Part shown: piece by piece, positions 9,051 to 36,972 of the stretch | How positions within the stretch are numbered: position 1 is the first letter of the stretch | How the letters are laid out: each line of letters begins with the position of its first letter | From: an uncultured Candidatus Saccharibacteria bacterium | GTDB taxonomy: Bacteria > Patescibacteriota > JACMRA01 | Length of the DNA: 64,000 bases | Assembly (NCBI GenBank): GCA_964434775.1 | Contig: CAYSWH010000003.1 | Location: forward strand, 1,877-65,876 | Direction: 5' to 3' | Notes under the pieces: model-generated | The model's database searches: none | What the model was told of the DNA's origin: nothing | Seen by the model: only the letters and a program-made list of their open reading frames with translations | Position numbers and translations under genes: made by a program

Positions 9051-9278
9051 TATAGTCTATCCGAAGATAACCTATACACACTTGTCACGGCGAACTTGTT
9101 TCGGCACCTCTTCGAATAGATCCTGAAATAATAATTGTCATTCCGAACTTGTTTCGGAATCCCTTCGAATAGATCCTGAAATAAATTCAGGATGACTGTG
9201 TGGTAAATTCAGGATGACCACTTGGCAAGTGACGGAGAAAAATTTGGAAATGTTTAGGTTTGAGAGAGGATGGCTATA
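9051..9278 (+). mobile_element. MITE-like element, copy A (228 bp, internal ~55 bp module duplication)
   Basis: Bounded by TA-TAGTCTATCC ... GGATGGCTA-TA. Shares the hairpin modules cgaacttgtttcg, gatcctgaaataaattcaggatgac and cacttggcaagtg, and the aaatttggaaatgt block, with five other copies. Confidence 0.8.
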
Positions 9279-9416: not shown

Positions 9417-10153
9417 ATGACTACAAAAAAAATTCTATTATCTACCGCTACTTTTAGTTTAATGTCAGCGGCTGTCGCCGGGGTATCTTTGCTCCTACTC
9501 TTAGTGCTAACGCTCAAGAGGCAACTCAGGCATCAAATTCGGCTAATACCGACTCCGGCCAAGGTCGTTTTGGAAGGTTTACTGAAGAAGAAAGAGAACG
9601 ATTTGAAAGCGTTAGAGAAGCGGTTAGGACTGCAGTAGAAGAAGCTAATTATGAAGCTTGGAAAACTGCCGTAACCGGACTTCCGGATGGCGGTGAAAAA
9701 CTCTTAGAGGCTGTTGATAGTGAGGATGATTTCAATCAATTAGTTGAAGCTCACAACTTAGCAGAACAGGGAAACTATGAAGAAGCTAGGGAAATCAGAG
9801 AAAACCTTGGTTTGGATAAAGGTTTTGGCCCAAAAAAGGATAAGGGTGACAGGCTTTCCAGGGAACAAGTGGAAGCTGTAAGGCAAGCTATGGAGAGCGG
9901 AGATTATCAAGCTTGGGTATCAGCAGTCCAAAATACTCCAAACGGTGGTGAACGTATTCTTGGGGTGATTGACTCTGAAGAAGATTTTAATAGGCTAGCT
10001 GAAAGTCATCAGAAGATGCAAGAAGGTGATATTGAAGGTGCCAGAGAAATTAAAGAAGAGCTAGGTTTACCGGAAAAAAGAAAAGGTCCTGGGGATAAAA
10101 AGGGAGGTGAGCAGAGAGGTTCACAGTATCAAGAAAAAGAAAATGAAGAATAA
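9417..10153 (+). CDS. Secreted helical protein with two ~55-aa tandem repeats; frame-disrupted after the signal peptide
   Basis: Signal peptide MTTKKILLSTATFSLMSAAVAG, then a G4 run (9480..9483). The +2 frame continues IFAPTLSANAQEAT...ANYEAWKTAV...EEAREIRENLGL / ...GDYQAWVSAV...EGAREIKEELGL up to the stop at 10153. Confidence 0.65.
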
Positions 10154-10183
10154 TTACTCAGTTCAAGCAAAACAGATACTTTG

Positions 10184-10209
10184 GCCCGGGTTAATGCCCG
10201 GGTTTTTGT
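10184..10209 (+). terminator. Rho-independent terminator
   Basis: gcccggg-ttaat-gcccggg followed by tttttg, about 30 nt after the stop at 10153. Confidence 0.7.
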
Positions 10210-10350
10210 TTATTTGACCGAAATGAATAAGTTACGGATAACTTAAGCACTAAATTAAATTTAGAAAGGAAGTTGAAAAAAATAATCTTAAGATCTTGGA
10301 ATTTTTTGATGTAGCTAACCTTCAAAGAGTTTTAGCAAATTGGAAATAGT

Positions 10351-12540: not shown

Positions 12541-12612
12541 ACCGAGATGCATTATTTTTCCTTATTTGAACCCTTCTTTTTCTTTCTGAAAGGGATAAAC
12601 TTAATAGCAATC

Positions 12613-13185
12613 TCACTTCTTTTTGCCTCTACCTTTGAATTTATTATCGTGTCTAGGAAGTAGATTAAAAATCCTTTCGGCCAGCCAGCCAGGAAATCCG
12701 GGTGCTTTGATTATTAGCTTGAGTCCTTTGGCCCATTTCGGTACTTTACCTTTATTATCTGTAGCCATTCTGTCTAAAGCCCTTGAAGCTGAGTCCGTAA
12801 GATTTTTAGCAATTATTGTAGTATAGGCGAGGTCATCTCCTATACCAAGCAAAGGAATTATATCTGGTAAAATATCGGCAGGAGAAAAAACCAAAAGAGC
12901 TAAAATCGCGGTCTTAAACCAGACTTGTTCGTCAGACAGATGCTCATTTGGGGTAACTACTAAAAAATGTAAATACCGGGGGTCAAGATTTCTTATCATA
13001 GAAGCAAAGCTAAAAGAGCTTTCCGGTTTTGCCATTTCTTCTTCAGCTAATTTGCTGGGATCAACTTCAGGGGCTAGTGCGTCTATTTGAGGTAGCCCTA
13101 ATTCATCCAATCTTTCTGCTGCAGGAGGTGTTTCGGGATCTTCTCTTTCATTTTGTCTGGTTGTTTTTTCCATGTTCATAAGCAA
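12613..13185 (-). CDS. DUF1232 (YkvA-like) domain protein
   Basis: VFSPADILPDIIPLLGIGDDLAYTTII matches the DUF1232 signature (D-hIPD-hIP-hG-hDD) as I recall it. Confidence 0.6.
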   Translation of the reverse strand: MLMNMEKTTRQNEREDPETPPAAERLDELGLPQIDALAPEVDPSKLAEEEMAKPESSFSFASMIRNLDPRYLHFLVVTPNEHLSDEQVWFKTAILALLVFSPADILPDIIPLLGIGDDLAYTTIIAKNLTDSASRALDRMATDNKGKVPKWAKGLKLIIKAPGFPGWLAERIFNLLPRHDNKFKGRGKKK

Positions 13186-13194
13186 AATAAGTTT

Positions 13195-13740
13195 TTAAGC
13201 GGCAAGAGCAGTATCACCTTGAACAGACTCTCCTCGTTTTTTTACCGCTCCTTTTCCGACTGCCAGTCTTGTCAGCCAATCAGGCAATCCTGTATCTTCA
13301 GCTCCTTTTCTAACTATTATATGGGCCACAACTTTTCTTAGTTCGTTGGCAACCAAAACATCATCAGCAAGACCAAGTGGTCCTAAGACTATCTCCGGGG
13401 CTATAAGTCTACAGGGCTAATAAGTATATGCCGCCAAAATTACTGCTTTTGTATAAAGGGCTTCCGTAGATAATCTACGATTATTTAAAGGGTTTCTAGT
13501 TAACTCCCAAAGAACTCCGGGTGTCCTCTGAATGAATTCTTTAATTTGAGTGATAACTGTGTTGTCGAAGGAACCGCCCATCACTTGTGTTTCATCTCTA
13601 GTTAGAGAATCCGGAGTCACTGTAGAATTAAGAGCTTCGATTCCAGGATCAGGTATTTCTTTTAACAATCTTAGAGCCTCGGCCTGATGTAGTTCATTTT
13701 TTTCATGAGTGGAAGGAGGTGTTTCAGCTGTGTAAGTCAT
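13195..13740 (-). pseudogene. DUF1232 paralogue interrupted by an in-frame TAG (13417..13419)
   Basis: The 13417..13740 ORF ends ...KAVILAAYTY-TAG. The same frame continues PCRLIAPEIVLGPLGLADDVLVANEL... to the TAA at 13195..13197. The stop aligns with the Ser of the neighbour's VFSPADILPD. Confidence 0.6.
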
Positions 13741-13744
13741 AATA

Positions 13745-14188
13745 TTAGTTTTTTAGGTCTTCTGTAAGCTTAAAATGTTCAAGAAAGTAACCGTAATTGA
13801 GGATAGCTCCCTCACAAAAGTCCAAGCTAAAGGTTTGATTAGCCTTCATTTCTTCGGTTATTAGAGTAATCAAAACAGAAGAGTCCTTGGTTTGCTTAAT
13901 TTTTACGACAAATTCTGAAGAGTAATTCTTTTTCTCATCCAGGCAGTATTTGAGGGTTAGCCAGAGAAATTTTTCGTACAATTTCCATTTAAAATCCAGA
14001 GCTTCATATTGATCACGATTGCTTGGATCCAATTCAATCAATCTATTGAGGATGAGTCTGCTAAACAAATTAATTAAGCCGTATTTGTGATCTTTTTCGA
14101 TTTGACCGAGGAATTCCTGAAGGGCTACTTGGGCTTTTTCTATGTCCAGATTGGACGGGGTGGTTGAATTTGAAGTCACTTGGTTCAT
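13745..14188 (-). CDS. Hypothetical protein (147 aa), first gene of a three-gene minus-strand unit
   Basis: Clean ORF, 4 nt upstream of the DUF1232 pair. No recognisable motif. Confidence 0.5.
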   Translation of the reverse strand: MNQVTSNSTTPSNLDIEKAQVALQEFLGQIEKDHKYGLINLFSRLILNRLIELDPSNRDQYEALDFKWKLYEKFLWLTLKYCLDEKKNYSSEFVVKIKQTKDSSVLITLITEEMKANQTFSLDFCEGAILNYGYFLEHFKLTEDLKN

Positions 14189-14285
14189 AAAATTTTATTA
14201 TTTCATTAAATATGAGTCAATATTGATTATGTCTTATTTTTCTTAAAAAATCAAATCAGTCAATCATCAGCCGGAAATTTGATAG

Positions 14286-14315
14286 TTGACAAATTTATTA
14301 TTGAAGAAGCATAAT
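14286..14315 (+). promoter_or_regulatory. Candidate sigma-70 promoter of the ABC transporter operon
   Basis: TTGACA (14286..14291), an 18-nt spacer, then CATAAT (14310..14315), about 50 nt upstream of the ATG at 14365. Confidence 0.4.
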
Positions 14316-14364
14316 GCTTTAACTAGCTTAAATAATAAGCAAATAAAAATTAAATCTTAAATAT

Positions 14365-15054
14365 ATGACGGCAATTATCTCAGCTTCAGAAGTCAGCAGG
14401 ATATTTGGAACCAAACAAAATCCGATTACTGCCGTAGATGAGGTTAACCTGGAAATCGAAAAAGGTAGTTTCACAGTTGTTCTCGGAAAAAGCGGTAGCG
14501 GAAAATCCACTCTCCTTAATCTGCTCAGTGGTTTGGACAAGGCTACCCGAGGTCAATTGATCGTTGACGGAAACGACTTGGGAAAAAGTAGTAGTAGTGC
14601 TCTAGCCAAGTATCGTTCAGGGATCGGTATAATCTTTCAATTTTACAACTTACTTCCCAATCTAAACGCTGTAGAAAATGTGATGATGGGAGCCTGGGCC
14701 GGCGGACAAGAAGTAAAAGAAGAAAAAGCTCTGGATATTATGAAAAAATTTGGAGTGGAGCATAGAGCAAAAGCCGATGTAAAGACTCTTTCGGGAGGGG
14801 AAAAGCAGAGAGTGGCTATTTGTAGGAGTTTAGTAGGCGATCCGGAAATTCTTTTTTGTGACGAACCTACCGGAGCTTTGGATACCGCCAACGAAAAACA
14901 AGTAATGCAAATTATTCAAGAAATCCACCAAACCGGGGTAACAATTTTTATGGTTACTCATAGTCCCGATTTTGCCGATTATGCTGATAAAGTGGTATAT
15001 ATGACCGACGGAAAGATAGAAAAAGTAGAAGAAAAACAAAAACAAGTTGCTTAG
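14365..15054 (+). CDS. ABC transporter ATP-binding protein (MacB/LolD/FtsE-like)
   Basis: Walker A GKSGSGKST, signature LSGGEKQR, Walker B LFCDEPTGALD, H-loop VTH. Confidence 0.88.
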   Translation: MTAIISASEVSRIFGTKQNPITAVDEVNLEIEKGSFTVVLGKSGSGKSTLLNLLSGLDKATRGQLIVDGNDLGKSSSSALAKYRSGIGIIFQFYNLLPNLNAVENVMMGAWAGGQEVKEEKALDIMKKFGVEHRAKADVKTLSGGEKQRVAICRSLVGDPEILFCDEPTGALDTANEKQVMQIIQEIHQTGVTIFMVTHSPDFADYADKVVYMTDGKIEKVEEKQKQVA

Positions 15055-15085
15055 AAAAGCTTAGTTAATTGAAATAATATAAATT

Positions 15086-16624
15086 ATGAACTACAAATCT
15101 TATAAAATAATTTTAGGAAGACAGTTTAAAGAAAAATGGGGGAGAATTCTTTTAGCCTCCGGAGGAATCATGGTAGGCGTCTGGGCCATAACGCTTACTT
15201 CCAGTCTTTCTTTGGGTCTGTCAGATACTATTGTTACGGCTATCAACAGTCAAAGCTTTGCCAAGCAAATCACCTTGACTAAGACCGAGGGTAACCAAAC
15301 CAATTTATTTGACATTAGTGACGCTCCCCAATTTGTACCTATAGGTTTTGAGGAATTAAAAGAGGTAGAGGAATCCAATCCGAATATTCAGGCAGTAGGA
15401 ATCAATAATATAATTGGCTTTTATGTTCATACTGATCAGGCTAATGAAAATACATCCTGTGTAGATTGGTCCAGGCAATTGCAACCGAACCCTGCTCAGG
15501 AATCTCCAAATCAAGAACCTCAAGGAGTAAATATTGAAACTCAACCGGAGCCGGGGAATACTCCTCAACCTCAATCACCGGATGAGATAGAGGACAACGT
15601 TAACAAATTGCAAGAAGAGTGTAATCAATCAACGGCCATGACAAACTCTTTTCCTCTTTTTTATGAATCCAATCGTACTAGATGGGTAGGGCCTGCGGAA
15701 AAGCCCGGCAGAGAAGAGATTGTGGTCTGTTATGAATGCGGTTCGGAAAATTTGGGCGAAAAATTGGGTTATGACAATCCCGAAGATCTAGTGGGTCAAG
15801 AAATTACAATTGAATTTTCCAGAGCCCCTGATCTGTTTCCCAAAGACAAGCCGATTGATGTGACAAATCTTGAAAGGCAGAATGCCGCGATTACGGAAAG
15901 CGAGCCGATCAAATTTACGGTAGCGGCGGTTGTAGATGATAGAGACACCGGAGTATTTGGTCTGCCGTCGTATTATTTTGATGAGTACTACTACAAAGAA
16001 GCCTTTAGTCTGGCTAATCCGGATGTAAGCGTGGATGATTACGGATCGGCCGAAAATGATGTTTTTGTGGATAGTTATGATAATCTTAATTCGGTTATGG
16101 ACCAATTAAGAGACGAAGGATACTTGGTTTTTTCCTTGGCTCAAACTATTATCAGCGGAGTAGAAACAGCCTTTTTGGGCTTGACCGTTATTTTGGGACT
16201 CTTTGGACTTATTGCTTTGGTAGCTTCACTGTTTGGAATAGTTAACGTAATGACAATTTCAGTCTTGGAAAGAAAAAAAGAAATAGGTATCCTCAAATCA
16301 TTAGGAGCCAAGGACCAAGATATCTTTAATATATTCTTTATTGAGAGCACCTTGCTTGGAATTTTGGGGTGGTTGATGGGTACTCTTTTGGCCGGAGGTA
16401 TGGGTCTTGGAATAGGACTCTTGAGTCAGTATTTGATAGAATCCAATGAGCAATGGAGAGATAATTTACAGGCCCTGAATATTGAGCAGTTTACACCTGC
16501 CTTTCCTTGGTGGATTTTGCTGGGAACCTTTGTTTTGGCGGTGTCCTTTACCGCTGTGTCCGGCTTGATTCCGGCAATTAGAGCCAGTAAGCAAAATCCG
16601 GTAGAAGTTCTGCGGAGTGAGTAA
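15086..16624 (+). CDS. ABC transporter permease, FtsX/MacB-type with a large extracytoplasmic domain
   Basis: N-terminal TM, a ~330-aa external domain, then the FtsX-like C-terminal bundle with ERKKEIGILKSLGAKDQDI. Confidence 0.8.
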   Translation: MNYKSYKIILGRQFKEKWGRILLASGGIMVGVWAITLTSSLSLGLSDTIVTAINSQSFAKQITLTKTEGNQTNLFDISDAPQFVPIGFEELKEVEESNPNIQAVGINNIIGFYVHTDQANENTSCVDWSRQLQPNPAQESPNQEPQGVNIETQPEPGNTPQPQSPDEIEDNVNKLQEECNQSTAMTNSFPLFYESNRTRWVGPAEKPGREEIVVCYECGSENLGEKLGYDNPEDLVGQEITIEFSRAPDLFPKDKPIDVTNLERQNAAITESEPIKFTVAAVVDDRDTGVFGLPSYYFDEYYYKEAFSLANPDVSVDDYGSAENDVFVDSYDNLNSVMDQLRDEGYLVFSLAQTIISGVETAFLGLTVILGLFGLIALVASLFGIVNVMTISVLERKKEIGILKSLGAKDQDIFNIFFIESTLLGILGWLMGTLLAGGMGLGIGLLSQYLIESNEQWRDNLQALNIEQFTPAFPWWILLGTFVLAVSFTAVSGLIPAIRASKQNPVEVLRSE

Positions 16625-16749
16625 GGTACTTCCTTTTGTACATTAGATATCTCGGTAAATTAAATCAAGTTACTCAAAAAAATCCAAGACAGGGTTTAGA
16701 AAAGAGTAAAGTCTCGATTTAAGCAAAATAGGCAGAATGTTGAGGTCGT

Positions 16750-16931
16750 TATTGTCGATCCGAATATAACCTACAACACTTGTCATACTGTCACGGCGAA
16801 CTTGTTTCGGCATCTCTATATGATGAGGAGATCCTGGAGTAACAATGAAAAGACCCTGAAACGAGTTCAGGGTGACGGTCTCCCTCCGAGTGAAATTTGG
16901 AAATGTCTAGGTTTAATTTGGTTTGACTATA
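16750..16931 (+). mobile_element. MITE-like element, copy B (divergent right half)
   Basis: Its left 60 nt (atccgaatataacctacaacacttgtcatactgtcacggcgaacttgtttcggcatctct) are identical to copy C. It ends aaatttggaaatgtctaggtttaatttggtttgacta-TA. Confidence 0.75.
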
Positions 16932-17150
16932 CTTGCCAATCAAGGAAAATTAAATAAGAAAAGAGAAAAAGTTATTAAACCAACCTTCTTAAACATTAAA
17001 AATAATAAAATAGCCTAGACATTCAACACTAACGAACATCAAGGTACAAGCCTTAGGCTAAAAAAATCTTAAGCAAGGGCAGGGACGACGAGTAAGACGA
17101 ATCTTGATGTCTCATCCCCACCACTTGCCCGGTTCCGGTTAGCAGTCGTT

Positions 17151-18121
17151 TTAGCGGGTAATTAGCGGTAAGTATACCACCTCGGTGGGCGGCGGCGGAT
17201 CATCGTCGGTGGGCAGAGGTCCGTACCGGACGATTTCGTTTCCTACATTGCAAACGACCGTGCCATTTGAGAATTCACCTGAAAAATTCCCGCAGGGGCC
17301 TAACAGACTAAGGTTGTCCAAGGTCCCGCTCCAGGCCTGGGGGCCCATGGGACCATCGGTGAGTACCAGGTACTTCCCATCCCCACCGGCCTCGAAGACG
17401 TCTACGAAATACGCCCCCCTTTGGGGAGTATCCCGCATGACGACGCTGCCATTCCCACCATCCTTTAAGATAGTTGAGTACGGAAACAACTTGTCCACAA
17501 ACATTATGGAGCCGTCGTTCTGGGGGCTTTTGGCGTGGGTCGGCACTACCGGTCGATTGGCTTCTCCCCTCATTGTCTCGAGGGGGATTCCGGCGATTGC
17601 ACCTGGTGTGGTCGGTGTCCGCAAGATGACATCCAGGCTGCTGAAGAACAGGAAGCCATTGAGAAGGACGGGTTTATTTCCAGCAAATATATGCTGGCCA
17701 CCATCGGTCGTCAGCAGGTGGACGCTTCCCCGTGTTTCAAAGGCGACCGTCCCCTCCGAAGCAACAAGATCCATGGGTCGATCCACCCCTTCGACGATGG
17801 TCGTCGTTGTATTCTCGGTAAGACGTTGCAGGGACCATGAGCCATCCCCCCCTGCAGGAAGAAGAGAATGGAGGTTGGACTCTCCCATATTGGGTGGGCG
17901 GTCGGGCCATCATGGATTTTTTCCAGGTCGCCGTCGCCGTAGACGTACAGGGCTGATTCCTCAACGAACACGATCTGGCCTTCCGTGTTCACATCGGGGC
18001 TGTGTCCTTCGGCGATCCGGACGGGAGCTGTTTGGGCCTGGGCCTGGCCCTGGGTCGCTCCGACTCCGACTAAACCTACTAACATAAGCAGCAGGGTGAG
18101 TGGTGTGAGTGCGTAACGCAT
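17151..18121 (-). CDS. Secreted protein encoded on a high-GC island; frame-disrupted as assembled
   Basis: 18121 opens MRYALTPLTLLLMLVGLVGVGATQGQAQAQ (signal peptide) ...GDLEKIHDG. The 17151..17888 frame is open from about 17915 (WPDRPPNMGESNLHSLLPAGGDGSW...). The two join with a 1-nt change in the G/C run at 17903..17905. The repeated G/D/T-rich strand-like segments suggest a beta-rich fold. Confidence 0.65.
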
Positions 18122-18396
18122 TTTTACACCTTTCGTGTATTATACAAACAATAGAACCGGCTCGTGCCGGGTTTTCCCGGGGGTTTGCTCCGACTTGAGG
18201 TCTCCTACCTCTCAAGTCAGTGTTACCCGGGGAAAGGTTTGTTTTGAAAGTTGTTTGGGTTCGTTGTGTTGTTGCTGTTGCGATTTGTTCTAATTTTGAT
18301 CTTGTGGGTTTGTTTATAAAACAAATTGACGACTAAGTCCGTGTGTAGGTGTGTATTAAGTGCAACTATGATTGTTTGTTTTTTGCGTTTTGGTTA

Positions 18397-18556
18397 TATA
18401 GCCATCCCTTCTTAAACCAAGACATTTCCAAATTTTTCTCTGTCACTTGCCAAGTGGTCATCCTGAATTTATTTCAGGATCTATTCCAAGAGATGCCGAA
18501 ACAAGTTCGCCGTGACAGTATGACAAGTGTTGTAGGTTATATTCGGATAGACTATA
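18397..18556 (-). mobile_element. MITE-like element, copy C (160 bp, inverted relative to copy B)
   Basis: On the plus strand it reads TA-TAGCCATCCC...ggatagacta-TA. Its reverse complement aligns along its whole length with the family consensus. Confidence 0.8.
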
Positions 18557-21493: not shown

Positions 21494-21947
21494 TATTTTA
21501 TTTTGATTTTCAAAATCATGGAAAGTTACTTTTTTAAAAAATCAAGATTTAGTTTTGTCCTATTCGTCTATGACTGTCAACAGGCACAAGAGTATATTTT
21601 TGCATCATCATTTAGGTGAAGAATGAAGCAGACTTTAACCGAGAGGTAAAATTAATAAAATTTATTCAAAAACCTAAGCCTGCTCTTCCGGATTGGATCC
21701 AATATTCATTTTTCCGACTTTGTTAAGATTTCTATTATTTAAAAATTCTCTAAGGTTATAGCTATTATCCAGGACGGTTTTTTGATGACACCTTTTAGAA
21801 AACAAAGTGACAAATTCTTGCTTAATAGGATTAGGGGTAACCATTGTCAAAATTTCTAAGCCGAATAATTAACACGGAAATATTGACACAATTGGAATTA
21901 TTCAGTAGATGATAATAGTTTATTTCATTATTAATATTACACCGAAA

Positions 21948-23955: not shown

Positions 23956-24786
23956 ATGAAGAAAAATTCAAAAAAAATTCAGGAACCTGAGGTCTCTGTG
24001 CTCATGCCTGTCTACAACCGTGAGAAAATGGTTGTAAAGAGTGTAGAGAGTATTTTGTCTCAGACCTTTGAAAATTTTGAATTTTTGATTATCGATGACG
24101 GAAGTACTGATTCTACATTTAAAACCCTGAGACAGCTGGCAAAGATAGATAAACGGATTAAAGTATGGCAAAATAAGAGAAACTTAGGTATTGCCAGGAC
24201 TAGAAATCTGCTTTTACGGAAAGCGGTAGGGAAATATGTTGTTTGGCAGGATTCAGATGATTTTTCCCTGCCTTATCGGATTGAAAAACAATATGATTTT
24301 ATGCAGAAGAATCCCGGGGTAGTTGTTTGCGGAAGTTTCTTGAGCGTTGCTTACGATTGTGACAGAGAGGTCTTGCGTCGATATTCGGCGGATGACTCCA
24401 TACTAAAAAAAAATATTTTCAGACAATCTCCGGTGGCACAGCCGGCAGCAATAATTCGGAGGAGGGAAATTTTGCAAGCCGGCGGTTATAACGAGACTTT
24501 AAATTTTGCTGAAGACTTGGATTTGTATTTACGTATCGGGCAAAAGTATGAATTTTCCAATTTGCAATTGCCCTTAGTTAAGTACATGGTAAATTCCGAT
24601 TCGGTCTCATTTAACAAAGTTAAGGAAGTTATGCACTGCAGTAATTATCTTAGAAAAAAAGCTGTGAAAGAATACGGCTACAGAATGACTATCAAGGATA
24701 AAATTCATACATTTTTAGTTTATTTAGCAACATCTTTACCTGAAACCGTTATATTTTGGTTATTTGAGAAGTCTCGAAAAGGATAA
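23956..24786 (+). CDS. Glycosyltransferase family 2
   Basis: VSVLMPVYNREKMVVKSVESILSQTFENFEFLIIDDGSTD plus DSDD and a later ED motif. Confidence 0.85.
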   Translation: MKKNSKKIQEPEVSVLMPVYNREKMVVKSVESILSQTFENFEFLIIDDGSTDSTFKTLRQLAKIDKRIKVWQNKRNLGIARTRNLLLRKAVGKYVVWQDSDDFSLPYRIEKQYDFMQKNPGVVVCGSFLSVAYDCDREVLRRYSADDSILKKNIFRQSPVAQPAAIIRRREILQAGGYNETLNFAEDLDLYLRIGQKYEFSNLQLPLVKYMVNSDSVSFNKVKEVMHCSNYLRKKAVKEYGYRMTIKDKIHTFLVYLATSLPETVIFWLFEKSRKG

Positions 24787-24841: not shown

Positions 24842-25315
24842 ATGAATCTAAATAATATTAATCAGAATTTTCCTCCAAACCAACCGAACGGCAACTTAAA
24901 TCCGGGATTTAATTCAAACCTTTCAGCCAATAGGGCAAATCAACCAAGTCAACAAAATCACAGTGTTTCGTCTCCTCAATATGATAACTACAGCTCAAAC
25001 CCTGATAATACATATAAAAACTATGTCTCAACCGAAAGCAGTAATTACACCTCCAACACTAACCAGAACTATCAATCTAACCGGAAAAATTACCGTTCCG
25101 GGGCAAGTTCGAATTATCGTTCCTTAAATAAACAAAAAAATAACTCAAGTCGCGGGAGTTATAGTCGAATAGATGGGGTAGAAGGCTTGCCGAAGACCGT
25201 TAATAAAGAAAAAAAAGGAAGCTCCGGGACGTTGTCGTATATAATCATAATTGTAATTACTTTCATTATCGGAGGACTTATGCTTGGAGGTCTGGCTTTG
25301 TTTTTTTCTGTTTAG
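24842..25315 (+). CDS. N/S/Q/Y-rich low-complexity protein with a C-terminal TM anchor
   Basis: About 130 aa of Asn/Ser/Gln/Tyr-rich sequence, then IIIIVITFIIGGLMLGGLALFF at the C-terminus. Confidence 0.55.
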   Translation: MNLNNINQNFPPNQPNGNLNPGFNSNLSANRANQPSQQNHSVSSPQYDNYSSNPDNTYKNYVSTESSNYTSNTNQNYQSNRKNYRSGASSNYRSLNKQKNNSSRGSYSRIDGVEGLPKTVNKEKKGSSGTLSYIIIIVITFIIGGLMLGGLALFFSV

Positions 25316-25653
25316 CAACTCGTCCAATATGCGAGAAATAGGTTTCTTAAAGGAGGCAGTATCTCCTGATGTCTCTCGGTATCAAGATGAAATTGATTCT
25401 TCCGTTTTAATAGAAGTAATTGATTTGGAGGATAGTTTGGATGGATACACTATAAACCTAAGCAGGTATAAGCCGGTGAGTTAAAGACGGTTCAATTTAA
25501 TTTTAACCAATTTCAAAGAAATAGATCGGAAGAGAGTGTATAGTGATTACAAAATGACTTTTGAAAATTATTTCTCAAGGCAAAATAAACAGTTGGTTTC
25601 AGAATAAAGAAGGGAGGACTAATGATCAATTATTCAACAAGTGTTGGAAGTTT

Positions 25654-25849
25654 TATAGTTGATCCGAACATAACCTATACACATTTGTTCCGGCGAACTT
25701 GTTTCGGCATCTCTTCAAATAGATCCTGAAATAAATCCAGGATGACGAGGTTGCAAATTCAGGATGACCACTTGGCAAGTGACGGAGTAAAATTTGGAAA
25801 TGTCTGGGTTTAAGAGGGGGTGGCTATAAATCAAGAAGAGCAAAAGAAA
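25654..25849 (+). mobile_element. MITE-like element, copy D (core 25654..25828 plus a 21-nt shared extension)
   Basis: TA-TAGTTGATCCGAAC...GGTGGCTA-TA. 195 of 196 nt identical to the reverse complement of copy E by hand alignment. Confidence 0.85.
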
Positions 25850-25949
25850 TAAAATAATTATATTTCATCCTCTCAAAATTAGTATCAGCTCACCTATTAA
25901 AAAACTCCCATAACAGGGAGTAATCGAAGAGTCTAACAAAATCTGTTTC

Positions 25950-26291
25950 TTACTCTTGGCAGTCTATTGCCTGCTCAAAGTTTTCTGCATCTAAAATGCA
26001 TTGCCTTTCTTCCTTAATCGTCAAGAGACCTTTAACTTCTGCCCTTCTTTCTTCGTCTTTTATACATTCATCTTTTGTCTGTCCTAAAAGATCTTCTTCA
26101 CCCAAGTTTTCTCCGGATTGGCCGGTTGCGGTCTCATATTCACTTCTGGAAAGATCCATAACCTTTTCGCACACTGCTTCAGCACTGGGAGGCGTAATAT
26201 AAACAGCAAAAGCAACAACTCCAATCAATCCTAAAAGGATAACCACCCCGAAAATACCGGCGATTCCAAACAATAATTTTTTATTCGACAT
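25950..26291 (-). CDS. Small N-terminally anchored membrane protein
   Basis: One TM (LLFGIAGIFGVVILLGLIGVVAFAVYI) and an acidic ~75-aa ectodomain containing four Cys. Confidence 0.55.
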   Translation of the reverse strand: MSNKKLLFGIAGIFGVVILLGLIGVVAFAVYITPPSAEAVCEKVMDLSRSEYETATGQSGENLGEEDLLGQTKDECIKDEERRAEVKGLLTIKEERQCILDAENFEQAIDCQE

Positions 26292-26341
26292 AGAAAAAAA
26301 TGGTTAGCATATACACACACCTTTGTCAAAACAAAACAATA

Positions 26342-26758
26342 TCATTTCTTCTTAAGTGAGAAAAACCACTCCACAAACTCTTGAGGGCAAAACATTACAG
26401 ATAACCTAGGCTGCCTAACCAAAGGAAAAGACTGAAACTTTTCAGAACTCTTAATTTCTTTCAAAGAAACCTGCATATCAGATAATAACTCCTGAAAAAA
26501 TTCTATGTCAGCCACCCAACTAAATCGTTTATCTTCTTTATTCTCTCTCGGATAAGAAACAACCTTTGCCAGCCCTACAATCTTATTTTCGCCTTGCGAG
26601 TGATAAATAAAAAGCAAATCACCCGGCTTCCATTGCTTAATAACATTCACTGCTTGATAGTTATGGACACCGTCCCAAACCGTTCTTCTGTCTCTTTTTA
26701 AGTCCTGTAAAGAGTATTCCTTAGGATCACTTTTTATTAGGTAGTAATCTATGGACAT
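26342..26758 (-). CDS. EVE (PUA-like) domain protein
   Basis: MSIDYYLIKSDPKEYSLQDLKRDRRTVWDGVHNYQAVNVIKQWKPGDLLFIYHS...IVGLAKVVS fits the EVE/THUMP-like pattern. The start was moved to the internal ATG at 26758. Confidence 0.7.
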   Translation of the reverse strand: MSIDYYLIKSDPKEYSLQDLKRDRRTVWDGVHNYQAVNVIKQWKPGDLLFIYHSQGENKIVGLAKVVSYPRENKEDKRFSWVADIEFFQELLSDMQVSLKEIKSSEKFQSFPLVRQPRLSVMFCPQEFVEWFFSLKKK

Positions 26759-26856
26759 AGTTTCATGAATTTTTTTTAATAACAAGATATTTTCTTCTTG
26801 GTGATTCCATATAAACAAAACAAAAAATCTATCTTTTTCAGACTTGCTGATTTATT

Positions 26857-27336
26857 TTAGAGATTAATGTCTTTTCTAAAATTAAAACAGTCGATCGAAA
26901 AACCTTGCTTGTAATAAAATGTGTGAGCATTTTTTCTGTGTAAATCTGATCTCAACTCTATTCCTCCACAGCCTTTTTCTTCAGCAAATTCAATAATAAA
27001 TTGCAACATCTTAGTTCCAAGACCGTAACCTCTTACATCTCTATCAATTACCAAATGATTAACATAGCAAATTTTTTCATCCCACATTTGCCAGCTGATA
27101 TTAAACTCCGCAAAACCCACAGGCTTATCATCCAAATCCATTCCTACAAAATAGCTTTTTTGGTGATCTACCATGTCGTTTATTATCCTCTTTAGCCTCT
27201 TTTTGGTTTTAATAAAATAAAGCATCTCCTTAATTATACGGTGATAATTTACTACTTCTGAAGGGTCTAAAAACCTGATTTTTAAGTTTTCCTTAATTTT
27301 CTTTGACTTATCCGAGTCTTCTTCACATACAGACAT
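26857..27336 (-). CDS. GNAT-family N-acetyltransferase
   Basis: The acetyl-CoA binding motif is VIDRDVRGYGLGTKMLQFIIEFAEEKG and the tail reads NAHTFYYKQGF. Confidence 0.8.
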   Translation of the reverse strand: MSVCEEDSDKSKKIKENLKIRFLDPSEVVNYHRIIKEMLYFIKTKKRLKRIINDMVDHQKSYFVGMDLDDKPVGFAEFNISWQMWDEKICYVNHLVIDRDVRGYGLGTKMLQFIIEFAEEKGCGGIELRSDLHRKNAHTFYYKQGFSIDCFNFRKDINL

Positions 27337-27593
27337 ATTACTCTTATATTTTTATTGATTAATATTAATAATACGGAAACCGGTCTTTTTACGAAACCGC
27401 TAAAATTTTGTAACTAAAGGTCTTAAGTTAATTAGTCCTCAATCTTTATACAGGAGGGATAACTTGCAAAAGTCATCCGCTTGAAACATAGCAAATTTGG
27501 TTAATTTAATTAACTGTTTCTTTAAAAAAAAATTCTGTCAAAATCCTTGACATTTAGATGATATAAAACTATTTTTAATTAGTTTATTTTTTT

Positions 27594-28577
27594 ATGGGCA
27601 AAATTCTAGTTACCGGAGGAGCCGGCTATATCGGTTCACAAACAAACTATGTTTTGTTGGATCAAGGTTTTGAAACAGTAGTTTTTGATAATTTATCATA
27701 TGGACACAGGGAAGTAGTTTCCGACAAATCTAAATTTTATCGCGGCGATCTTTTAAATCTTGATTCTTTGGAGCAAGTTTTTAGAGAAAATAAAATTGAA
27801 GCAGTCTTACATTTTGCAGCCTTTATTTCTGTAGGAGAAAGCGTGGAAAAGCCTGACATTTACTATCGTAACAATGTTTTAGGGACTATAAACCTACTGG
27901 AAGTAATGAAAAAGTATGAAGTAAATAAACTGGTTTTTTCTTCGACAGCAGCTGTATACGGATTGCCGGAAAATGTTCCCATTAGTGAAAACTCACCCAA
28001 GATGCCGATTAATCCTTATGGTAGAAGTAAGTGGATGATGGAGCAGATAATGGATGATTTCCATCAAGCTTACGGACTAAATTCCCTTCGTCTAAGATAT
28101 TTTAATGCTTGCGGTGCCGATAGTAAGCTTAGAACCGGAGAGAATCATCAGCCGGAAACCCACCTTATTCCTCTGGCAATCTATGCAGCCTTGAATATTA
28201 AGCCGGAAATCAAGATTTACGGTGATGACTATAACACTCCTGACGGAACTTGCATTCGTGACTATATTTATATTGAAGATTTAGCTGAAGCACACGTGCT
28301 TGCCTTAAAAAAACTTTTATCAGGCCTGAAAATAGCGGAAGGTGTGAACTTGGGAACTAAGAGAGGATATTCAGTAAAAGAAGTGATTCAAACAGTAAAA
28401 GAAGTAACCGGCAGAGATTTTATAGTTGAGGTAACAGACAAAAGACCGGGAGATCCGAATATTTTAGTAGCAGACAATCAAAAAGCCAAAGATCTTTTAA
28501 ATTGGGAAGCGAATAGATCAGAGCTGAAAAATATTATCCAAACTGCCTGGCAATGGCACCAAAAGAATTTATCTTAA
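27594..28577 (+). CDS. galE: UDP-glucose 4-epimerase
   Basis: MGKILVTGGAGYIGS, SSTAAVYG, NPYGRSKWMME (YxxxK), and full-length GalE-like similarity. Confidence 0.88.
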   Translation: MGKILVTGGAGYIGSQTNYVLLDQGFETVVFDNLSYGHREVVSDKSKFYRGDLLNLDSLEQVFRENKIEAVLHFAAFISVGESVEKPDIYYRNNVLGTINLLEVMKKYEVNKLVFSSTAAVYGLPENVPISENSPKMPINPYGRSKWMMEQIMDDFHQAYGLNSLRLRYFNACGADSKLRTGENHQPETHLIPLAIYAALNIKPEIKIYGDDYNTPDGTCIRDYIYIEDLAEAHVLALKKLLSGLKIAEGVNLGTKRGYSVKEVIQTVKEVTGRDFIVEVTDKRPGDPNILVADNQKAKDLLNWEANRSELKNIIQTAWQWHQKNLS

Positions 28578-28592
28578 AATGAACTAAACAGT

Positions 28593-29882
28593 ATGCTTAA
28601 AAAAGGATGGAATTATTTTCTAAATAATGATTTTTTAAAGTCTTCTTCAGTTTTTTATATAGTCAACATAGTTAACGCCGCTTCTAACTACGGTCTGATT
28701 GTAATTGTTAGTCATAGCATTAGTGATCAGCTTAGTGCATGGACGGCCCTAAATAGTTTAATCATTATCTTCTTAACCCCGGTTCAAGGCCTTGGAACAA
28801 ACATCTCTAAAAGAGTTTCTTCTATTTCTCACCAAAGTGCTTTAGCCGGCTGCGAATATTACTCCTTTCTTCGGTCAAACACTTTTAAAGTTATTTTAGC
28901 TTTTTTTACTCTTCCTTTAGTCTTTTTTCTAATACTCAGAAGCGTCGGCTTAACCCCTGATTTTCCTTCTTACATCTTCATTTCGATCATAACTATGGTT
29001 GCCTTAATACAGTCCATAGAAAGTCAGTTTTTAATGGGTATACTCGACACCAAACATACCATTCAAGCTCTTTTATCAATTGGCTTGATTCGCTTAAGTA
29101 GTACAATTTTATTTATCTATCTGGGCTTTGAAATATATTCTCTTCCAATGGGTTTGGTAGCTTCATATTTGGTTTCCTATCTAATTGCTAAATTTTACGG
29201 CAACAAATACCGAAAAAAAATAACAAAAGAAGTAAATAAACTAGAAGAAAACGTAAAAAAGAAAGTACAAAGTTTAAGTTTAAAGGAAGAAATTTACGGA
29301 GCTTCCAAGACAATTATCGCTTTAGCCTTTCTTGCCTTAACTCTAAATTTAGGTATGGTTATTGCAGAGAGACTTTTAAACACTCAAGAAAAAGACCTTT
29401 ATGCCGTTCTTTTTAACTTCGGTCAAATAATACATTTTGGTTCTACAGCCTTCCTTTCTGCATTTATTGCTCATTCGGCAAGAGGAAAAAATATTGGTAT
29501 ATATCTACAGTCGCTGGCTTTGGTAAGTCTTTCCTCTCTAGGAGCGGGTGTTACCTTTTGGATCTTTGGGGACTTACTCCTACAAGCATTTAATAGGCAA
29601 GAATACTCATCTCAACTGTATCTGATAATCCTTTACGCTCTTTTAATCTCTATTTATAACGCCTTGTTTGTTTCCGTCCAGTACCTAATATCTCAGGATC
29701 AATACAGAACAATTCTTAAACTCTTTATTTTCATCTTATTAAACGCTGTTACCTTAATAATTATTTCATCAGTTGACCTAGGTCTTCAAATTGATATAAT
29801 CTTACAATATATCTTTGCCAATATGTTTTTTGTAGGCGGTGCAACTCTCTATTCAGGATATAAAATTTTCCAAAACAGGTAG
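28593..29882 (+). CDS. Polytopic membrane protein, oligosaccharide flippase (MOP/Wzx)-like
   Basis: 429 aa, about 12 TM helices, placed immediately after galE. Assigned from topology and context only. Confidence 0.45.
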   Translation: MLKKGWNYFLNNDFLKSSSVFYIVNIVNAASNYGLIVIVSHSISDQLSAWTALNSLIIIFLTPVQGLGTNISKRVSSISHQSALAGCEYYSFLRSNTFKVILAFFTLPLVFFLILRSVGLTPDFPSYIFISIITMVALIQSIESQFLMGILDTKHTIQALLSIGLIRLSSTILFIYLGFEIYSLPMGLVASYLVSYLIAKFYGNKYRKKITKEVNKLEENVKKKVQSLSLKEEIYGASKTIIALAFLALTLNLGMVIAERLLNTQEKDLYAVLFNFGQIIHFGSTAFLSAFIAHSARGKNIGIYLQSLALVSLSSLGAGVTFWIFGDLLLQAFNRQEYSSQLYLIILYALLISIYNALFVSVQYLISQDQYRTILKLFIFILLNAVTLIIISSVDLGLQIDIILQYIFANMFFVGGATLYSGYKIFQNR

Positions 29883-30008
29883 CTATTCATGTTTTTTTAA
29901 TTAGTAAATCCTCAAAAAAATCCAAAATTTAGAAAATTTTTGAAGAGTTTTAGGATGAATTAACAACATTGGGACCAAAAGAAAGTACTTATTTATTGTC
30001 GACAAATT

Positions 30009-30204
30009 TTTCTTTTGCTCTTCTTGATTTATAGCCATCCCCTCTTAAACCCAGACATTTCCAAATTTTACTCCGTCACTTGCCAAGTGGTCATCCTGAA
30101 TTTGCAACCTCGTCATCCTGGATTTATTTCAGGATCTATTTGAAGAGATGCCGAAACAAGTTCGCCGGAACAAATGTGTATAGGTTATGTTCGGATCAAC
30201 TATA
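30009..30204 (-). mobile_element. MITE-like element, copy E (inverted partner of copy D)
   Basis: Its reverse complement equals copy D except for one position (gggGtggctata versus gggAtggctata). Confidence 0.85.
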
Positions 30205-30492
30205 TAATGATAATTAATAAATATATTTAGACGAAAAAAGACCACATCCAAAGGATTGATAGTTTTAGATAAATTCCTCATCTCTTTTTGACTAAAAAAG
30301 CGGCATCTAAAATTAGAATTACTTCTTTTTAATCCATACATTCTTTTGCCTGTTTAAGTATTTAGGAGGTCGACAGAAAAACGTTTTTATTACTGCATCT
30401 AATCAGTATAAATCCGACAATTTTTTATTTATCAAATAGAAGGAAATTTTTTTGTGCATCCGTATTTTTAATTTAAGGGGTGTCTTAATTGA

Positions 30493-33400
30493 TTAATCAC
30501 CTGTACTATCTTCGTCCTCTTCTCCGGCAGAAGGATCGGTAATGCTAATTGTGGAGTCCGGAACTTCTATTTTTTGAGTGCCGCTGCCCGTTATGTATAT
30601 GGGTAAGTTTGCTGCAGCCTCATTGCCGGCAGTCGAAACCGTACAGGTGGTAACGCTGTTTGAGCTTAGGGTGCAAGAACTTCCAACAGTTGATTGTCCA
30701 ATAAATATATAAATTACTGATAATTCTGTTTTAGCCGGAGGTACAATTTGGCAGGTGGAATTTTCACCAAGCTCTACGTCTGAACAGTTTACTTTGAAGG
30801 AACTCAGGTCGATCTCCGTCTCTTCCTCTTCTTCCTCTTCCTCATCGTTTGCAGAAGAAAAGTTAACATTGGTAAACTCAGCCTTTACCTCCATATCAAA
30901 GTCGGTTTTAATAATTATCTCTACTGAGTTTTTTCCGGTAATTTCTAAACTGTTTGTCAACACTTCCAGATTAGGGCTGTTTTCGGCTGTTTCAACAGTT
31001 ACTCCGTTAATTCTCAGGTCAATTTGAGTAACCCGGATATTTTCATTAACAGTTTTGACATTAATTGCAATTGTTTTCGGTGCCGGAGAATTTGACTCGA
31101 GGTTAGTTTCGATTTCCGGTTTTAGCTTGTCTTCACTGATATCTGATTTCTCAGTAGGGCAAGTATTGCCGCTACCTCCAATTGCCTTAGCCGGGCTATA
31201 CCAAGCAGGGTTTTGAGGGAATTCGGAAAGTAGTTCCCCGCACTGCATTTCCGTTATTAATTCTTCAGGTAAATTGAAATCGTTAGGAAGTAACTTGTTG
31301 TCAATAGCAGTAACTTTTATGGTTCGGTTGGTAATTGGTGAACGGTTTTGAAAAATACTATTTTCTCTAGGGTTGTAATTACCGCCGGAAAGCTTTTCCG
31401 TGGCCTGGTTTAGAAGGCTGATTTGTTCCTCTGAAAGATATTCTGTAGCTCCGGAATCAGAAATAAATCCTGAGGTTCGAGAAAGTTTTACGGGTGTCAG
31501 ACCTTCTACGCTAAATCCTTTCTTTGGTTTGTCTTGGTGAATCTCGGTCATTATCTGTTTCCAAATCGGAGCTGCGCTCGTCGAGCCGGTAGCATCGGGA
31601 TTCATTGGGCTGTTATCGGTGTTTCCAACCCATACAGTTACTGTGTAGTAAGGGGATCCTCCTACGGTCCACGCATCTCTAACGTCGCTGGTAGTACCGG
31701 TTTTTGCAGCTACGCTATTATTGCCGGTCCAGCCGTCCAATTCCAAGTTACTTTTGACAGTCCCCCAAATAGACGGATCTCTGGAGTCATAGTCAGACAT
31801 TACATGAGCAACTTCTTTAGCTATTGAAGAATCTATTACCTGGTCTATTCTTGGATAAGGATTATTCTCTTCTTGAGTGTTTTCATAAAATACTCTTTCT
31901 TCCAAACCTCCGGTGCTTGGGTCGTATTCTCTTGAAATAATCTTTTTGAAAGGATTGGCTGTTCTCAAGTTTCCTTCCTGCAGTAATGTATTAATTCCGG
32001 TTACGTGAGACTCCATACTTACTTCACAACTACCCAGAGCCATAGTTATGTCACATTCTCTAAGATGACTTACTCCGACCTTACTGGCAAAACTTTCTAA
32101 GTTATTTACCGCACTTATAGAATCAGGTTGATTTCCGGGATTCTGAAGTAAATAGGCTCCTTTGACTGAAGGGATGTTTAATGAATTTTGCAAAGAGTAT
32201 CTGGCGGTAACCAATCCGTAAGTCTTTTTATTGAAATTACTAGGACTAAACCCTCCAAAGTCCGTTTTAGCATCGAGTAAAATTGTTCCCGGATTGAAAC
32301 CTCTTTCAAAGGCTCCGGCAAAAACATATGGTTTATAGCTACTACCGGGTTGTCTGTAAGAAGTGGCGACATTGACTTGCCCTCCTATTTCTACATTATT
32401 AAAATCTCTGGAACCGATCATGGCAACTATCTCTCCGGAGGGTCCGTCCAAAACCATGGCTGCAGCGTTATTGGCACCGTTTGGAAGGATATAAGTTCCG
32501 GAATTTTCAGTTATAATTTGTTCCATTCTGGCTTGTTTATCAATGTCGAAAGTGGAGTGTATTTTATAACCCTTAGTCAAAAGCTCTTTTTGGGTAATAC
32601 CAAACTTTTCTTCCATCTCGTGAACAATATAATTTTGAATATGTCCATACTTGATTTCAGTTTCTTTGGGAGGTAAAAAATCAGGTATTTCCGCTTGCAA
32701 TTCAGCCACCTGACTCTGTTGAATATACATGGGTTTATCTTGACCTCTAAGTGGTACGGCGGCCATTTTTTCTATGCAAGCATTTTTTCTGGCAATTAGC
32801 TCTTCTGCAGCGGGAGTATTGGTGTTACCTTCCATTATATCGGTGATTCCAAGTGAATATACGGTTGGCTTTTGCGGCATCGAAGCTAGATAACATGATT
32901 CCGAGATCGTAAGGTCCTTGGCACTCTTTCCATAAAAACTTTGCGAAGCTTTTTCTATACCGTACATGTTTCTACCAAAAGGAACCCAATTAAGATACAG
33001 CTCTAAAACCTCTTCTCTATCTACTTCTTGATTAAATTTTATCGCTGACATTAGTTCGTTCAACTTTCTGTCAACACTATGATCGTCTTGACCTGAAACA
33101 TTTTTGATTAATTGTTGAGACAGACCGCTACCTCCACGACATTCCTGACCTCTGGAAAACAAACATTTTACTGTAGCTCCGACTAAGTTTTTCCAGGGTA
33201 TTCCTACCTCATTTTCATAAAAGTTTTCGTCTTCCAAGGCAATTATAGCTAGTTGCATGTTCTCAGAAATGTTAGATAAAGAAACGTATTCCCGGTTCTC
33301 AGCACCACCGGAATAAGAGATTATTTCTCTTTCTTTGCGGTCAAAAACTACACTTCCTTCCGGAGGTTGTAATGCTTGAGCCTTTACAGAGGGAGCCTGG

Positions 33401-33789
33401 TTATATTTCGACAGTAGCCAAAATCCTGTAACCGTCAGACCGAGTAGTCCGATTAATCCGCTAACATAAACAAAACCTTTTATCTTCTTTCTGTGTTTTT
33501 TGTAAAACCTCTTAACTTTATTCTTAAAACCGGGTTTGTTTTCTTCTTCCGGCAAGTTTGTATCTTCTTCCGGGTACCAATTTTCTTCGTTAGGGTGACC
33601 AAACTCCGGTTCGTAGTCATCTTCCGGACGGTAATCTTTGGAGTAGTCTTCTTGAGTATTATTTTCTGTGTAGTTTTGTCGGGGGTAATGATTTTCCGGA
33701 GTCCTTAGATCATCCGGCTGTGGTCTATCAGTATAAATATCCGTACTTTTCCTTCTGGGGCGCTTGGGCTCAACAATGATTTCTGTCAT
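30493..33789 (-). CDS. Class A penicillin-binding protein (transglycosylase/transpeptidase) with a long C-terminal extension
   Basis: GT51 motifs ALEDENFYEN and RGGSGLSQQLIKN. Transpeptidase motifs PGSSYKP (SxxK), SLN and KTGTT. An N-terminal TM, and a ~330-aa C-terminal region with a poly-Glu tract. Confidence 0.88.
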   Translation of the reverse strand: MTEIIVEPKRPRRKSTDIYTDRPQPDDLRTPENHYPRQNYTENNTQEDYSKDYRPEDDYEPEFGHPNEENWYPEEDTNLPEEENKPGFKNKVKRFYKKHRKKIKGFVYVSGLIGLLGLTVTGFWLLSKYNQAPSVKAQALQPPEGSVVFDRKEREIISYSGGAENREYVSLSNISENMQLAIIALEDENFYENEVGIPWKNLVGATVKCLFSRGQECRGGSGLSQQLIKNVSGQDDHSVDRKLNELMSAIKFNQEVDREEVLELYLNWVPFGRNMYGIEKASQSFYGKSAKDLTISESCYLASMPQKPTVYSLGITDIMEGNTNTPAAEELIARKNACIEKMAAVPLRGQDKPMYIQQSQVAELQAEIPDFLPPKETEIKYGHIQNYIVHEMEEKFGITQKELLTKGYKIHSTFDIDKQARMEQIITENSGTYILPNGANNAAAMVLDGPSGEIVAMIGSRDFNNVEIGGQVNVATSYRQPGSSYKPYVFAGAFERGFNPGTILLDAKTDFGGFSPSNFNKKTYGLVTARYSLQNSLNIPSVKGAYLLQNPGNQPDSISAVNNLESFASKVGVSHLRECDITMALGSCEVSMESHVTGINTLLQEGNLRTANPFKKIISREYDPSTGGLEERVFYENTQEENNPYPRIDQVIDSSIAKEVAHVMSDYDSRDPSIWGTVKSNLELDGWTGNNSVAAKTGTTSDVRDAWTVGGSPYYTVTVWVGNTDNSPMNPDATGSTSAAPIWKQIMTEIHQDKPKKGFSVEGLTPVKLSRTSGFISDSGATEYLSEEQISLLNQATEKLSGGNYNPRENSIFQNRSPITNRTIKVTAIDNKLLPNDFNLPEELITEMQCGELLSEFPQNPAWYSPAKAIGGSGNTCPTEKSDISEDKLKPEIETNLESNSPAPKTIAINVKTVNENIRVTQIDLRINGVTVETAENSPNLEVLTNSLEITGKNSVEIIIKTDFDMEVKAEFTNVNFSSANDEEEEEEEETEIDLSSFKVNCSDVELGENSTCQIVPPAKTELSVIYIFIGQSTVGSSCTLSSNSVTTCTVSTAGNEAAANLPIYITGSGTQKIEVPDSTISITDPSAGEEDEDSTGD

Positions 33790-36664: not shown

Positions 36665-36861
36665 TATAGTCGATCCGAACATAACCTATACCCACTTGTC
36701 ATGCCGGACTTTCATTGTCATGGCGAACTTGTTTCGGAATCACTTTCGAAGATAGATCCTTAAATAAATTCAGGATGACGGGATAGCAAATTCAGGGTTA
36801 CCAGTTGGCAAGTGACAGAGTAAAATTTGGAAATGTCTAGGTTTAATGAGGTTTAGCTGTA
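36665..36861 (+). mobile_element. MITE-like element, copy F
   Basis: TA-TAGTCGATCCGAACATAACC ... aaatttggaaatgtctaggtttaatgaggtttagctg-TA. Same module order as the other copies, with a private insertion. Confidence 0.78.
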
Positions 36862-36972
36862 TGTCTCTAGTGTAAAAATTGAAGCTGTTTTTAATGTATA
36901 ACAACTGGTTTTCAAACGAATGGGGGATTTTTTATAGTAAAAAATGCTGAAACCAGGTTCAGCATAATCATG

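Follow-up and report, generated by a model that had tools for sequence, protein, structure and literature searches.

Two near-identical inverted repeats, arm D (25654..25849, plus strand) and arm E (30009..30204, minus strand), enclose a block of five genes (25850..30008; 4,159 nt) in the 64-kb stretch of DNA from an uncultured bacterium analysed here, which we call the window; in a near-identical strain the block lies the other way round. We suggest, with a probability of about 0.7, that D and E, members of a dispersed family resembling MITEs (transposable elements of the miniature inverted-repeat type), allow homologous recombination by the host to flip the 4.16-kb block, which looks native to the locus, and that at least one such flip has taken place between the strains. 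The proposal is built on the repeat and its family, on the four arm junctions, on the native composition of the block, and on the inverted order, with breakpoints inside the arms, of a second assembly. Repeat-mediated inversion is already textbook biology and no new mechanism is involved; what is new is the MITE-like family and a 4.2-kb inversion between strains. The locus would thus provide a base-resolved case of a very short (196-nt) dispersed repeat restructuring the small, gene-dense genome of an uncultured lineage between strains less than 1% apart.

The arms and the reversed block in a second strain

Compared base by base, D and the reverse complement of E are identical at 195 of 196 positions, exactly the count and coordinates given in a preliminary description of this DNA. 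The sole mismatch is at 25820, a G in D, whose partner 30038 is T on the plus strand (A in E's own orientation). A repeat search of the window returns a slightly longer pair, 25651-25849 and 30009-30207 (199 nt, 99% complementary, spacing 4159 nt); the three extra bases in its arms include a mismatch and are there by chance. Each arm consists of a 175-nt MITE-like core (25654-25828 in D, 30030-30204 in E) with the ends TATAGTTGATCC...GGTGGCTATA, followed by a 21-nt extension (25829-25849 and 30009-30029). In the orientation of the window, the first junction sequence reads GATCAATTATTCAACAAGTGTTGGAAGTTT, arm, TAAAATAATTATATTTCATCCTCTCAAAAT and the second AAGAAAGTACTTATTTATTGTCGACAAATT, reverse complement of the arm, TAATGATAATTAATAAATATATTTAGACGA.

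A search with the flippase-like (Wzx-like) protein of the block led to a near-identical protein on a contig of an NCBI metagenome-assembled genome (MAG), JBUDSI010000011.1 (GCA_054921195.1; L030 below), which has 17,723 nt and no Ns. BLAST resolves the comparison of this contig with the window into four collinear pieces: 681-6352 of L030 corresponds to window 35687-30009 in reverse complement (99.4%), 6154-10713 to window 25651-30207 on the plus strand (99.2%), 10515-14626 to window 25849-21737 in reverse complement (99.5%), and 14627-17723 to window 21646-18550, again in reverse complement (99.7%). Over about 18 kb the two strains are therefore 99.2-99.7% identical, the one rearrangement being the reversal of the 4.16-kb block with respect to both flanks. 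The gene tables of the two (L040 for the window strain, L041 for the MAG) display the flip side by side. In the window strain a GT2 glycosyltransferase and a 157-aa protein are followed by the block, running from its 113-aa gene to the Wzx-like gene, and then by a penicillin-binding protein (PBP); in the MAG strain the same outer genes enclose a block that runs from Wzx to the 113-aa gene. An alignment of all four arms shows that outer and inner flanks have been exchanged precisely and reciprocally, with both breakpoints within the arms: in the MAG the PBP-side arm leads into the end of the block with the 113-aa gene, and the arm next to the 157-aa gene into the Wzx end. The two arms of L030 are identical to each other (196/196), and the longest perfectly identical stretch between arms is accordingly 196 nt in the MAG strain, compared to 166 nt in the window strain. 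The preliminary description had proposed that such repeats could support homologous inversion and had pointed to gene order in related genomes as the place to look for it; the near-identical MAG, with repeats present and the cassette in the opposite orientation, supports that proposal, and the relatives do not all share one gene order lacking the repeats.

Both arm copies are real. Each of the four arm junctions is carried separately by contigs that are 100% identical to the window and come from other samples and assemblers: left flank into D by L021, L022 and L023, D into the block by L002 and L003, the block into E by L002 and L004, and the right flank into E by L026-L029. The samples are metagenomes of microbial mats in the Andes (PRJEB25599; ERR1878617 from Logan, ERR2407577/8 from ENA/Logan). 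With k-mer lengths of 31 (Logan) and 127 (MEGAHIT), most of these contigs break off precisely k-1 or k bases after the two arms can last be told apart, as expected from a real inverted repeat longer than k; L022 and L028 end elsewhere within the arms. Neither copy is an assembly duplication, a concern raised in the preliminary description, as all four junctions recur in independent contigs.

Proposed recombination between the arms and its alternatives

The 196 bp of near-perfect homology in the arms would permit a crossover by general homologous recombination, of the RecA type, and such a crossover would invert the block. We favour this reading because the breakpoints fall inside the arms, no recombinase gene was found and MITEs have been described as hotspots for homologous recombination (PMC10969869). 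A scan of window open reading frames (ORFs; most of those of at least 110 aa) and of the precomputed gene tables found no Pfam match to a transposase, integrase or invertase. The flip would leave both operons of the block intact, with transcription starting in an internal intergenic region and running outward towards the arms. As these operons point outward and the genes outside converge on the block in either orientation, no promoter-gene link is changed, and the flip is probably neutral for expression. We further infer that one orientation predominates in each population, as suggested by an unbroken contig across both arms from each of two assemblers. The outcome would be a structural polymorphism between strains and not a switch.

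The closest precedent is the inversion of segments between inverted insertion sequence (IS) or MITE copies, as described for Porphyromonas gingivalis W83 and ATCC 33277 (PMC2575886) and in a review of MITEs (PMC10969869). There, as here, inverted repeats derived from mobile elements bound a segment that is flipped between close strains, the breakpoints lie inside the repeats and no dedicated recombinase takes part. The present case differs in that the arms are only 196 nt long, the segment measures only 4.2 kb and the host is uncultivated.

Several observations weigh against the inversion as we read it. Each orientation is found in only one long contig (JGI Ga0153773_1000047, 111 kb, from which the window derives, for the one and the NCBI MAG contig for the other), and since the arms exceed the assembly k-mers, each orientation rests on the read-pair or long-read resolution of one assembler. 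All MEGAHIT and Logan contigs break within the arms and are uninformative on orientation. Both arms of L030 have T where both window arms have C (25783 and its partner 30075). At face value this pattern is concerted evolution by gene conversion, although the evidence is weak: the site is 66 nt from unique sequence, so that a collapsed repeat consensus could yield the same base in both arms, and a Logan unitig (L058, SRR33304595) has a C...A arm on a cassette like that of L030. For these two reasons we have downgraded concerted arm evolution as an independent proof of recombination. Finally, the 21-nt extension shared by D and E is not explained by homologous recombination alone; a crossover cannot create shared sequence past the element, and the extension therefore needs another origin (see below). 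Whatever the history of the locus, assemblies of metagenomes with this organism will break there or orient the block wrongly.

Unlikely in our view is an assembly artefact in which the repeat pair is real, the block has been wrongly oriented in one of the long contigs and no biological inversion has occurred. Every k-mer-limited contig does end inside the arms, and L030 itself ends at other copies of the repeat (at 18550, inside copy C, and 143 nt before copy F). In sample SRR33304592 the PBP-side flank unitig (L044/L060) ends only 6 nt into arm E (30199-30204), not 30 nt, which indicates extra graph complexity: the sample has a second sequence that shares the flank and TATAGT and then differs, either another arm variant or another junction. 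What speaks against an artefact is that both long contigs span both arms without Ns. Spanning of this kind would require read-pair or long-read support, for de Bruijn assemblers lacking it break at such places, as MEGAHIT did. Since library inserts usually exceed 196 nt, read pairs normally resolve a repeat of this length reliably.

We regard as very improbable that the arms and the five genes move as a composite transposon, with a transposase of the family acting in trans on the outward-facing left ends, as the preliminary description had also considered. The arms are inverted copies with identical outer ends next to TA, a second pair of the family (B/C) has the same geometry and encloses DNA of 55-60% GC (guanine plus cytosine) that looks clearly foreign, and there are known cases of mobilised segments with MITEs at both ends, such as MITE-flanked integrons (PMC10969869), in which, as here, two homologous MITEs bracket a gene block. 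For the block between D and E, evidence of movement is lacking altogether: it was found at the present locus only, in all samples and both strains, its GC and GC3 (GC at third codon positions) equal those of its flanks, and it lies among related glycan genes (GDP-mannose dehydratase, GT2, PBP). Relatives of its Wzx-like protein elsewhere are at most 35% identical and are found in other contexts, no transposase was found among the window ORFs scanned, and the flanking TA is uninformative.

A programmed site-specific inversion (a phase-variation switch, or inverton), in which a dedicated recombinase would act on the arms, is not supported and very improbable: the block does encode surface-glycan functions, a common target of phase variation, and two orientations do exist, but there is no serine or tyrosine recombinase gene among the scanned ORFs and gene tables of the 64-kb window, the arms belong to a dispersed repeat family instead of being short dedicated sites, the operons appear to be driven from inside, outward either way, with no promoter-gene connection altered, and unbroken contigs from two assemblers would argue against a mixed population. 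The Hin, Gin and Fim systems and the invertons of Bacteroides use short dedicated sites (10-30 bp) with an invertase nearby, and their flip switches a promoter or a gene end. The segment between D and E shares with them that it is bounded by inverted repeats and occurs in two orientations; its arms are 196-nt, transposon-like sequences.

The repeat family and the origin of the pair

The arms belong to a family of six copies (A-F), all of which lie between 9 and 37 kb of the window, with none elsewhere in the 64 kb; they were found with diagnostic 14-25-mers, for which the chance expectation is about 0-0.5. Besides D and E these are copy A (9051..9278, plus strand), copy B (16750..16931, plus strand), which is the most diverged, copy C (18397..18556, minus strand), which is inverted relative to B in the same left-out/right-in geometry as D/E, and copy F (36666..36862, plus strand). 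With six copies and two inverted pairs packed into 28 kb, the family has a local hotspot at the surface-glycan locus. Over the 175-nt core D and E are identical at 174 positions (99.4%), compared to 70-91% for every other pair. A multiple alignment of the six copies gives sharp boundaries, TATAG(T/C)(C/T)GATCC ... GG(A/G)TGGCTATA, with unrelated sequence outside. The core measures 160-230 nt (about 175 nt in D/E), below the limit of roughly 600 bp for MITEs, and is non-coding, with only chance ORFs of at most 45 aa inside. Its terminal inverted repeat is imperfect and about 12 nt long (TATAGTCGATCC vs TATAGCC-ATCC), and the termini pair in the minimum free energy fold. A TA target duplication would fit each of the copies; an empty site was not seen in any related contig compared. 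An autonomous insertion sequence with matching ends was not found, nor was a transposase among the window ORFs scanned or at related loci. We have filed the element, which is short, non-coding, dispersed and sharply bounded, as MITE-like.

The family is new as far as our searches of Rfam and the pattern scans of contig collections show. No Rfam family matches the element. Patterns for the D/E subfamily and for the general family have 0 matches in the metagenome contig collection, the family pattern has 0 in the genome contig collection, and a pattern for the hairpin doublet described below has 0 in the viral contig collection. An RNA reading of the arm was rejected on the basis of the Rfam result and of the fold of the whole element, which is not better than that of shuffled sequences on either strand (z -0.38 and +0.25). 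We also rejected a promoter or terminator role for the arms as unsupported: the number of promoter-like matches equals the shuffle expectation (22 vs 22.0), and the only terminator-like site found in this analysis falls outside the arm.

The Correia repeat-enclosed elements of Neisseria are MITEs with TATAG... termini, a TA target duplication and a 26-nt terminal inverted repeat. Our family resembles them in being non-coding and intergenic, in its size (about 100-200 nt in Correia elements), in having TATAG-type ends beside TA, in its many dispersed copies and in its association with rearrangements. The kinship in sequence ends, however, at the terminal pentamer, the inverted repeat is about 12 nt and imperfect as opposed to 26 nt, and a hairpin doublet is nested in the present element. 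What inverts in the Correia case, as described, is the element itself and not the genes between two copies (PMC10969869).

The nested doublet is about 60 nt long, has the form GTCATTCCGAACTTGTTTCGGAATC-spacer-GATCCTGAAATAAATTCAGGATGAC and is present in every copy. It is pristine in copy A, which carries an extra doublet at 9137-9196, and degraded in the arms (25686..25749 on the plus strand of D, with a mirror copy at 30109-30172 in E). DNA folds of the doublet have z values of -4 to -9. A MAG assigned to Levyibacteriota (JACDET010000003.1; L008) has, within 17.5 kb, at least five free-standing doublets with both 25-mers identical, doublet-related positions being 8843-8902, 9169-9251, 11889-11953, 15713-15737 and 16170-16232; the PBP of this MAG is only 34% identical to that of the window. 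The same locus has a second palindromic family (GTCATTGCGAG...GCAATC). The module, two imperfectly inverted palindromic hairpins with a short spacer in about 60 nt, is reminiscent of the doublets of repetitive extragenic palindromic sequences in REPIN/RAYT systems (PMC3116915, PMC3337134), and, like REPINs, it is also found free-standing in many copies, as in the Levyibacteriota MAG. It differs from them in its head, which is GTCAT and not a GTAG-type motif, and in that the D/E arms form a larger unit inside which the module is degraded; a RAYT (Y1 transposase) did not turn up in the DNA examined, including the surroundings of the doublets at the Levyibacteriota locus.

Copy A has changed recently. 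In the strain of Logan sample SRR27366713 (96.7% identical) it is present at the same site (L035, 4047-4228) and lacks the 53-nt extra module, so that gain or loss of the module within the copy must be recent. In the same strain, the window ORFs 9417-9638 and 9812-10153 form one 245-aa gene; the window version of this gene is probably frameshifted.

Between copies B and C (16750-18556) the DNA from about 17050 to 18250 has 55-60% GC, compared to a window mean of 36.7%. A 245-aa ORF in it (17151-17888) has a GC3 of 0.62 and no Pfam match and is preceded by an ORF with a signal peptide; the two ORFs have the look of a foreign gene disrupted by a frameshift. B and C match at 97% over their outer 68 nt and have diverged over the rest. 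The segment is present, and identical, in the independent ENA contig L021.

The origin of the D/E pair turns on the 21 nt (AATCAAGAAGAGCAAAAGAAA) that follow the ...GGCTATA end of the family. In the window this sequence occurs only at D and E, even with three mismatches allowed, and it is present in all four arms of the window and MAG strains; the preliminary description had already extended the identity of the arms past the TA end. The earlier argument that the extension speaks against independent insertions is reasonable, since no other family copy has it; duplication, which was then proposed, is one of several routes that we consider. An origin of the pair by intramolecular replicative transposition we rejected by reasoning, as it predicts right-end flanks that differ and not 21 shared nucleotides. 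The remaining options are that D and E represent a longer subfamily with further members beyond the DNA examined, that one arm was copied from the other together with 21 nt of flanking sequence, or that the extension derives from repair synthesis running past the homology. A weak hint in favour of the second comes from the target sites: at D the extended unit (25656-25849) is bordered by TA left and right, while at E this holds for the standard 175-nt unit alone (local TA frequency 0.075-0.09). By this pattern E would be the parent and D an over-long copy of it.

A wider interpretation, which we offer as a distinctly speculative one, is that the family is an active, horizontally spreading mobile system of Patescibacteria, with a transposase still to be named, whose inverted pairs shuffle or capture cassettes in the envelope locus. 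It is left open by three observations: the doublet recurs base for base in the Levyibacteriota MAG, the D/E pair flips apparently native genes, and B/C encloses DNA of foreign appearance. If it were true, the 21-nt extension would record an over-long copying event, the extended D unit having TA on both sides.

Genes of the block and its surroundings

The five genes listed for the cassette in the preliminary description (a small Cys-containing membrane protein, an EVE-domain protein, a GNAT acetyltransferase, galE and a flippase-like gene) hold up by domain and structure matches. They are arranged as two divergent operons, the first three on the minus strand and the last two on the plus strand. 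The 113-aa protein (25950..26291, minus strand) has one predicted N-terminal membrane helix, four Cys and no family match; its gene is followed by a terminator-like hairpin at 25904-25921. The EVE-domain protein (26342..26818, minus strand; PF01878, E 2.6e-30) has 158 aa if translated from TTG, or 138 aa from the ATG at 26758. The third gene encodes a GNAT N-acetyltransferase of 159 aa (26857..27336, minus strand; PF00583, E 1.5e-18). Both operons presumably start in the divergent intergenic region between GNAT and galE (27337..27593), to which we attribute a promoter role. On the plus strand, the UDP-glucose 4-epimerase GalE (27594..28577; 327 aa) matches the equivalog TIGR01179 with 432 bits (cut-off 262).

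The last gene (28593..29882, plus strand) encodes a polytopic membrane protein of 429 aa that has no Pfam or NCBIfam match and is annotated by JGI as an O-antigen/teichoic-acid exporter. Its AlphaFold (AF2) model has a mean pLDDT (predicted local distance difference test) of 83.7 and a pTM (predicted template modelling score) of 0.85. The closest structure is the lipid III flippase WzxE (9g95_A; E 1.8e-7, template modelling score 0.70), followed by MATE and MurJ, which are members of the MOP superfamily, and the model thus assigns the protein a MOP (Wzx-like flippase) fold. Relatives of the gene elsewhere do not exceed 35% identity.

The preliminary description had asked whether the composition of the cassette departs from that of its flanks. 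It does not: GC is 0.340 in the block vs 0.349 and 0.376 in the flanks, and GC3 in the block (0.30-0.37) is like that of the neighbouring genes. From its composition the block looks native, not imported. Its surroundings fit a predicted role in the cell envelope. The left flank contains the GT2 glycosyltransferase (23956-24786) and, downstream of it, the 157-aa N/Q/S-rich protein with a C-terminal membrane helix (24842..25315, plus strand), as well as a GDP-mannose 4,6-dehydratase and an oxidoreductase. The right flank contains the PBP, a class A enzyme of 1098 aa (30493..33789, minus strand) with Transgly (E 2e-45) and Transpeptidase (E 4.8e-15) domains. By these annotations the block sits inside a cell-envelope glycan locus. 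The best relatives of the PBP are 55% identical in the protein database (a MAG of the same NCBI series), 42% among GTDB species genomes and 29-34% among MAGs of the Levyibacteriota. One homologue bears the label "Patescibacteria group bacterium", and the host, from microbial mats, is probably of a patescibacterial lineage. None of these three sets of relatives shares the gene order, so that they provide neither an ancestral orientation nor an empty site.

Apart from the flip, the window and MAG strains differ in some further details. Against a background of about 0.3%, differences are clustered at 27567-27652 (14 in 86 nt; the right edge of the intergenic region and the first codons of galE) and at 29840-29876 (10 in 37 nt; the 3' end of the Wzx-like gene), which suggests recombination tracts imported from elsewhere. 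A number of short-read contigs of the mat samples also terminate within the Wzx-like gene, at 29038-29196. A 90-nt intergenic stretch of the window strain (21647-21736) is absent from both the MAG strain and contig L050, an indel. Elsewhere in the window, two adjacent ORFs of 160 and 170 aa (50904-51886) both match the UvrC RNase H endonuclease domain and look like a split or truncated uvrC. Within the block, the MAG strain has single-A insertions in homopolymer runs at 26293 and 25898, and the called product of the first gene grows from 113 to 126 aa.

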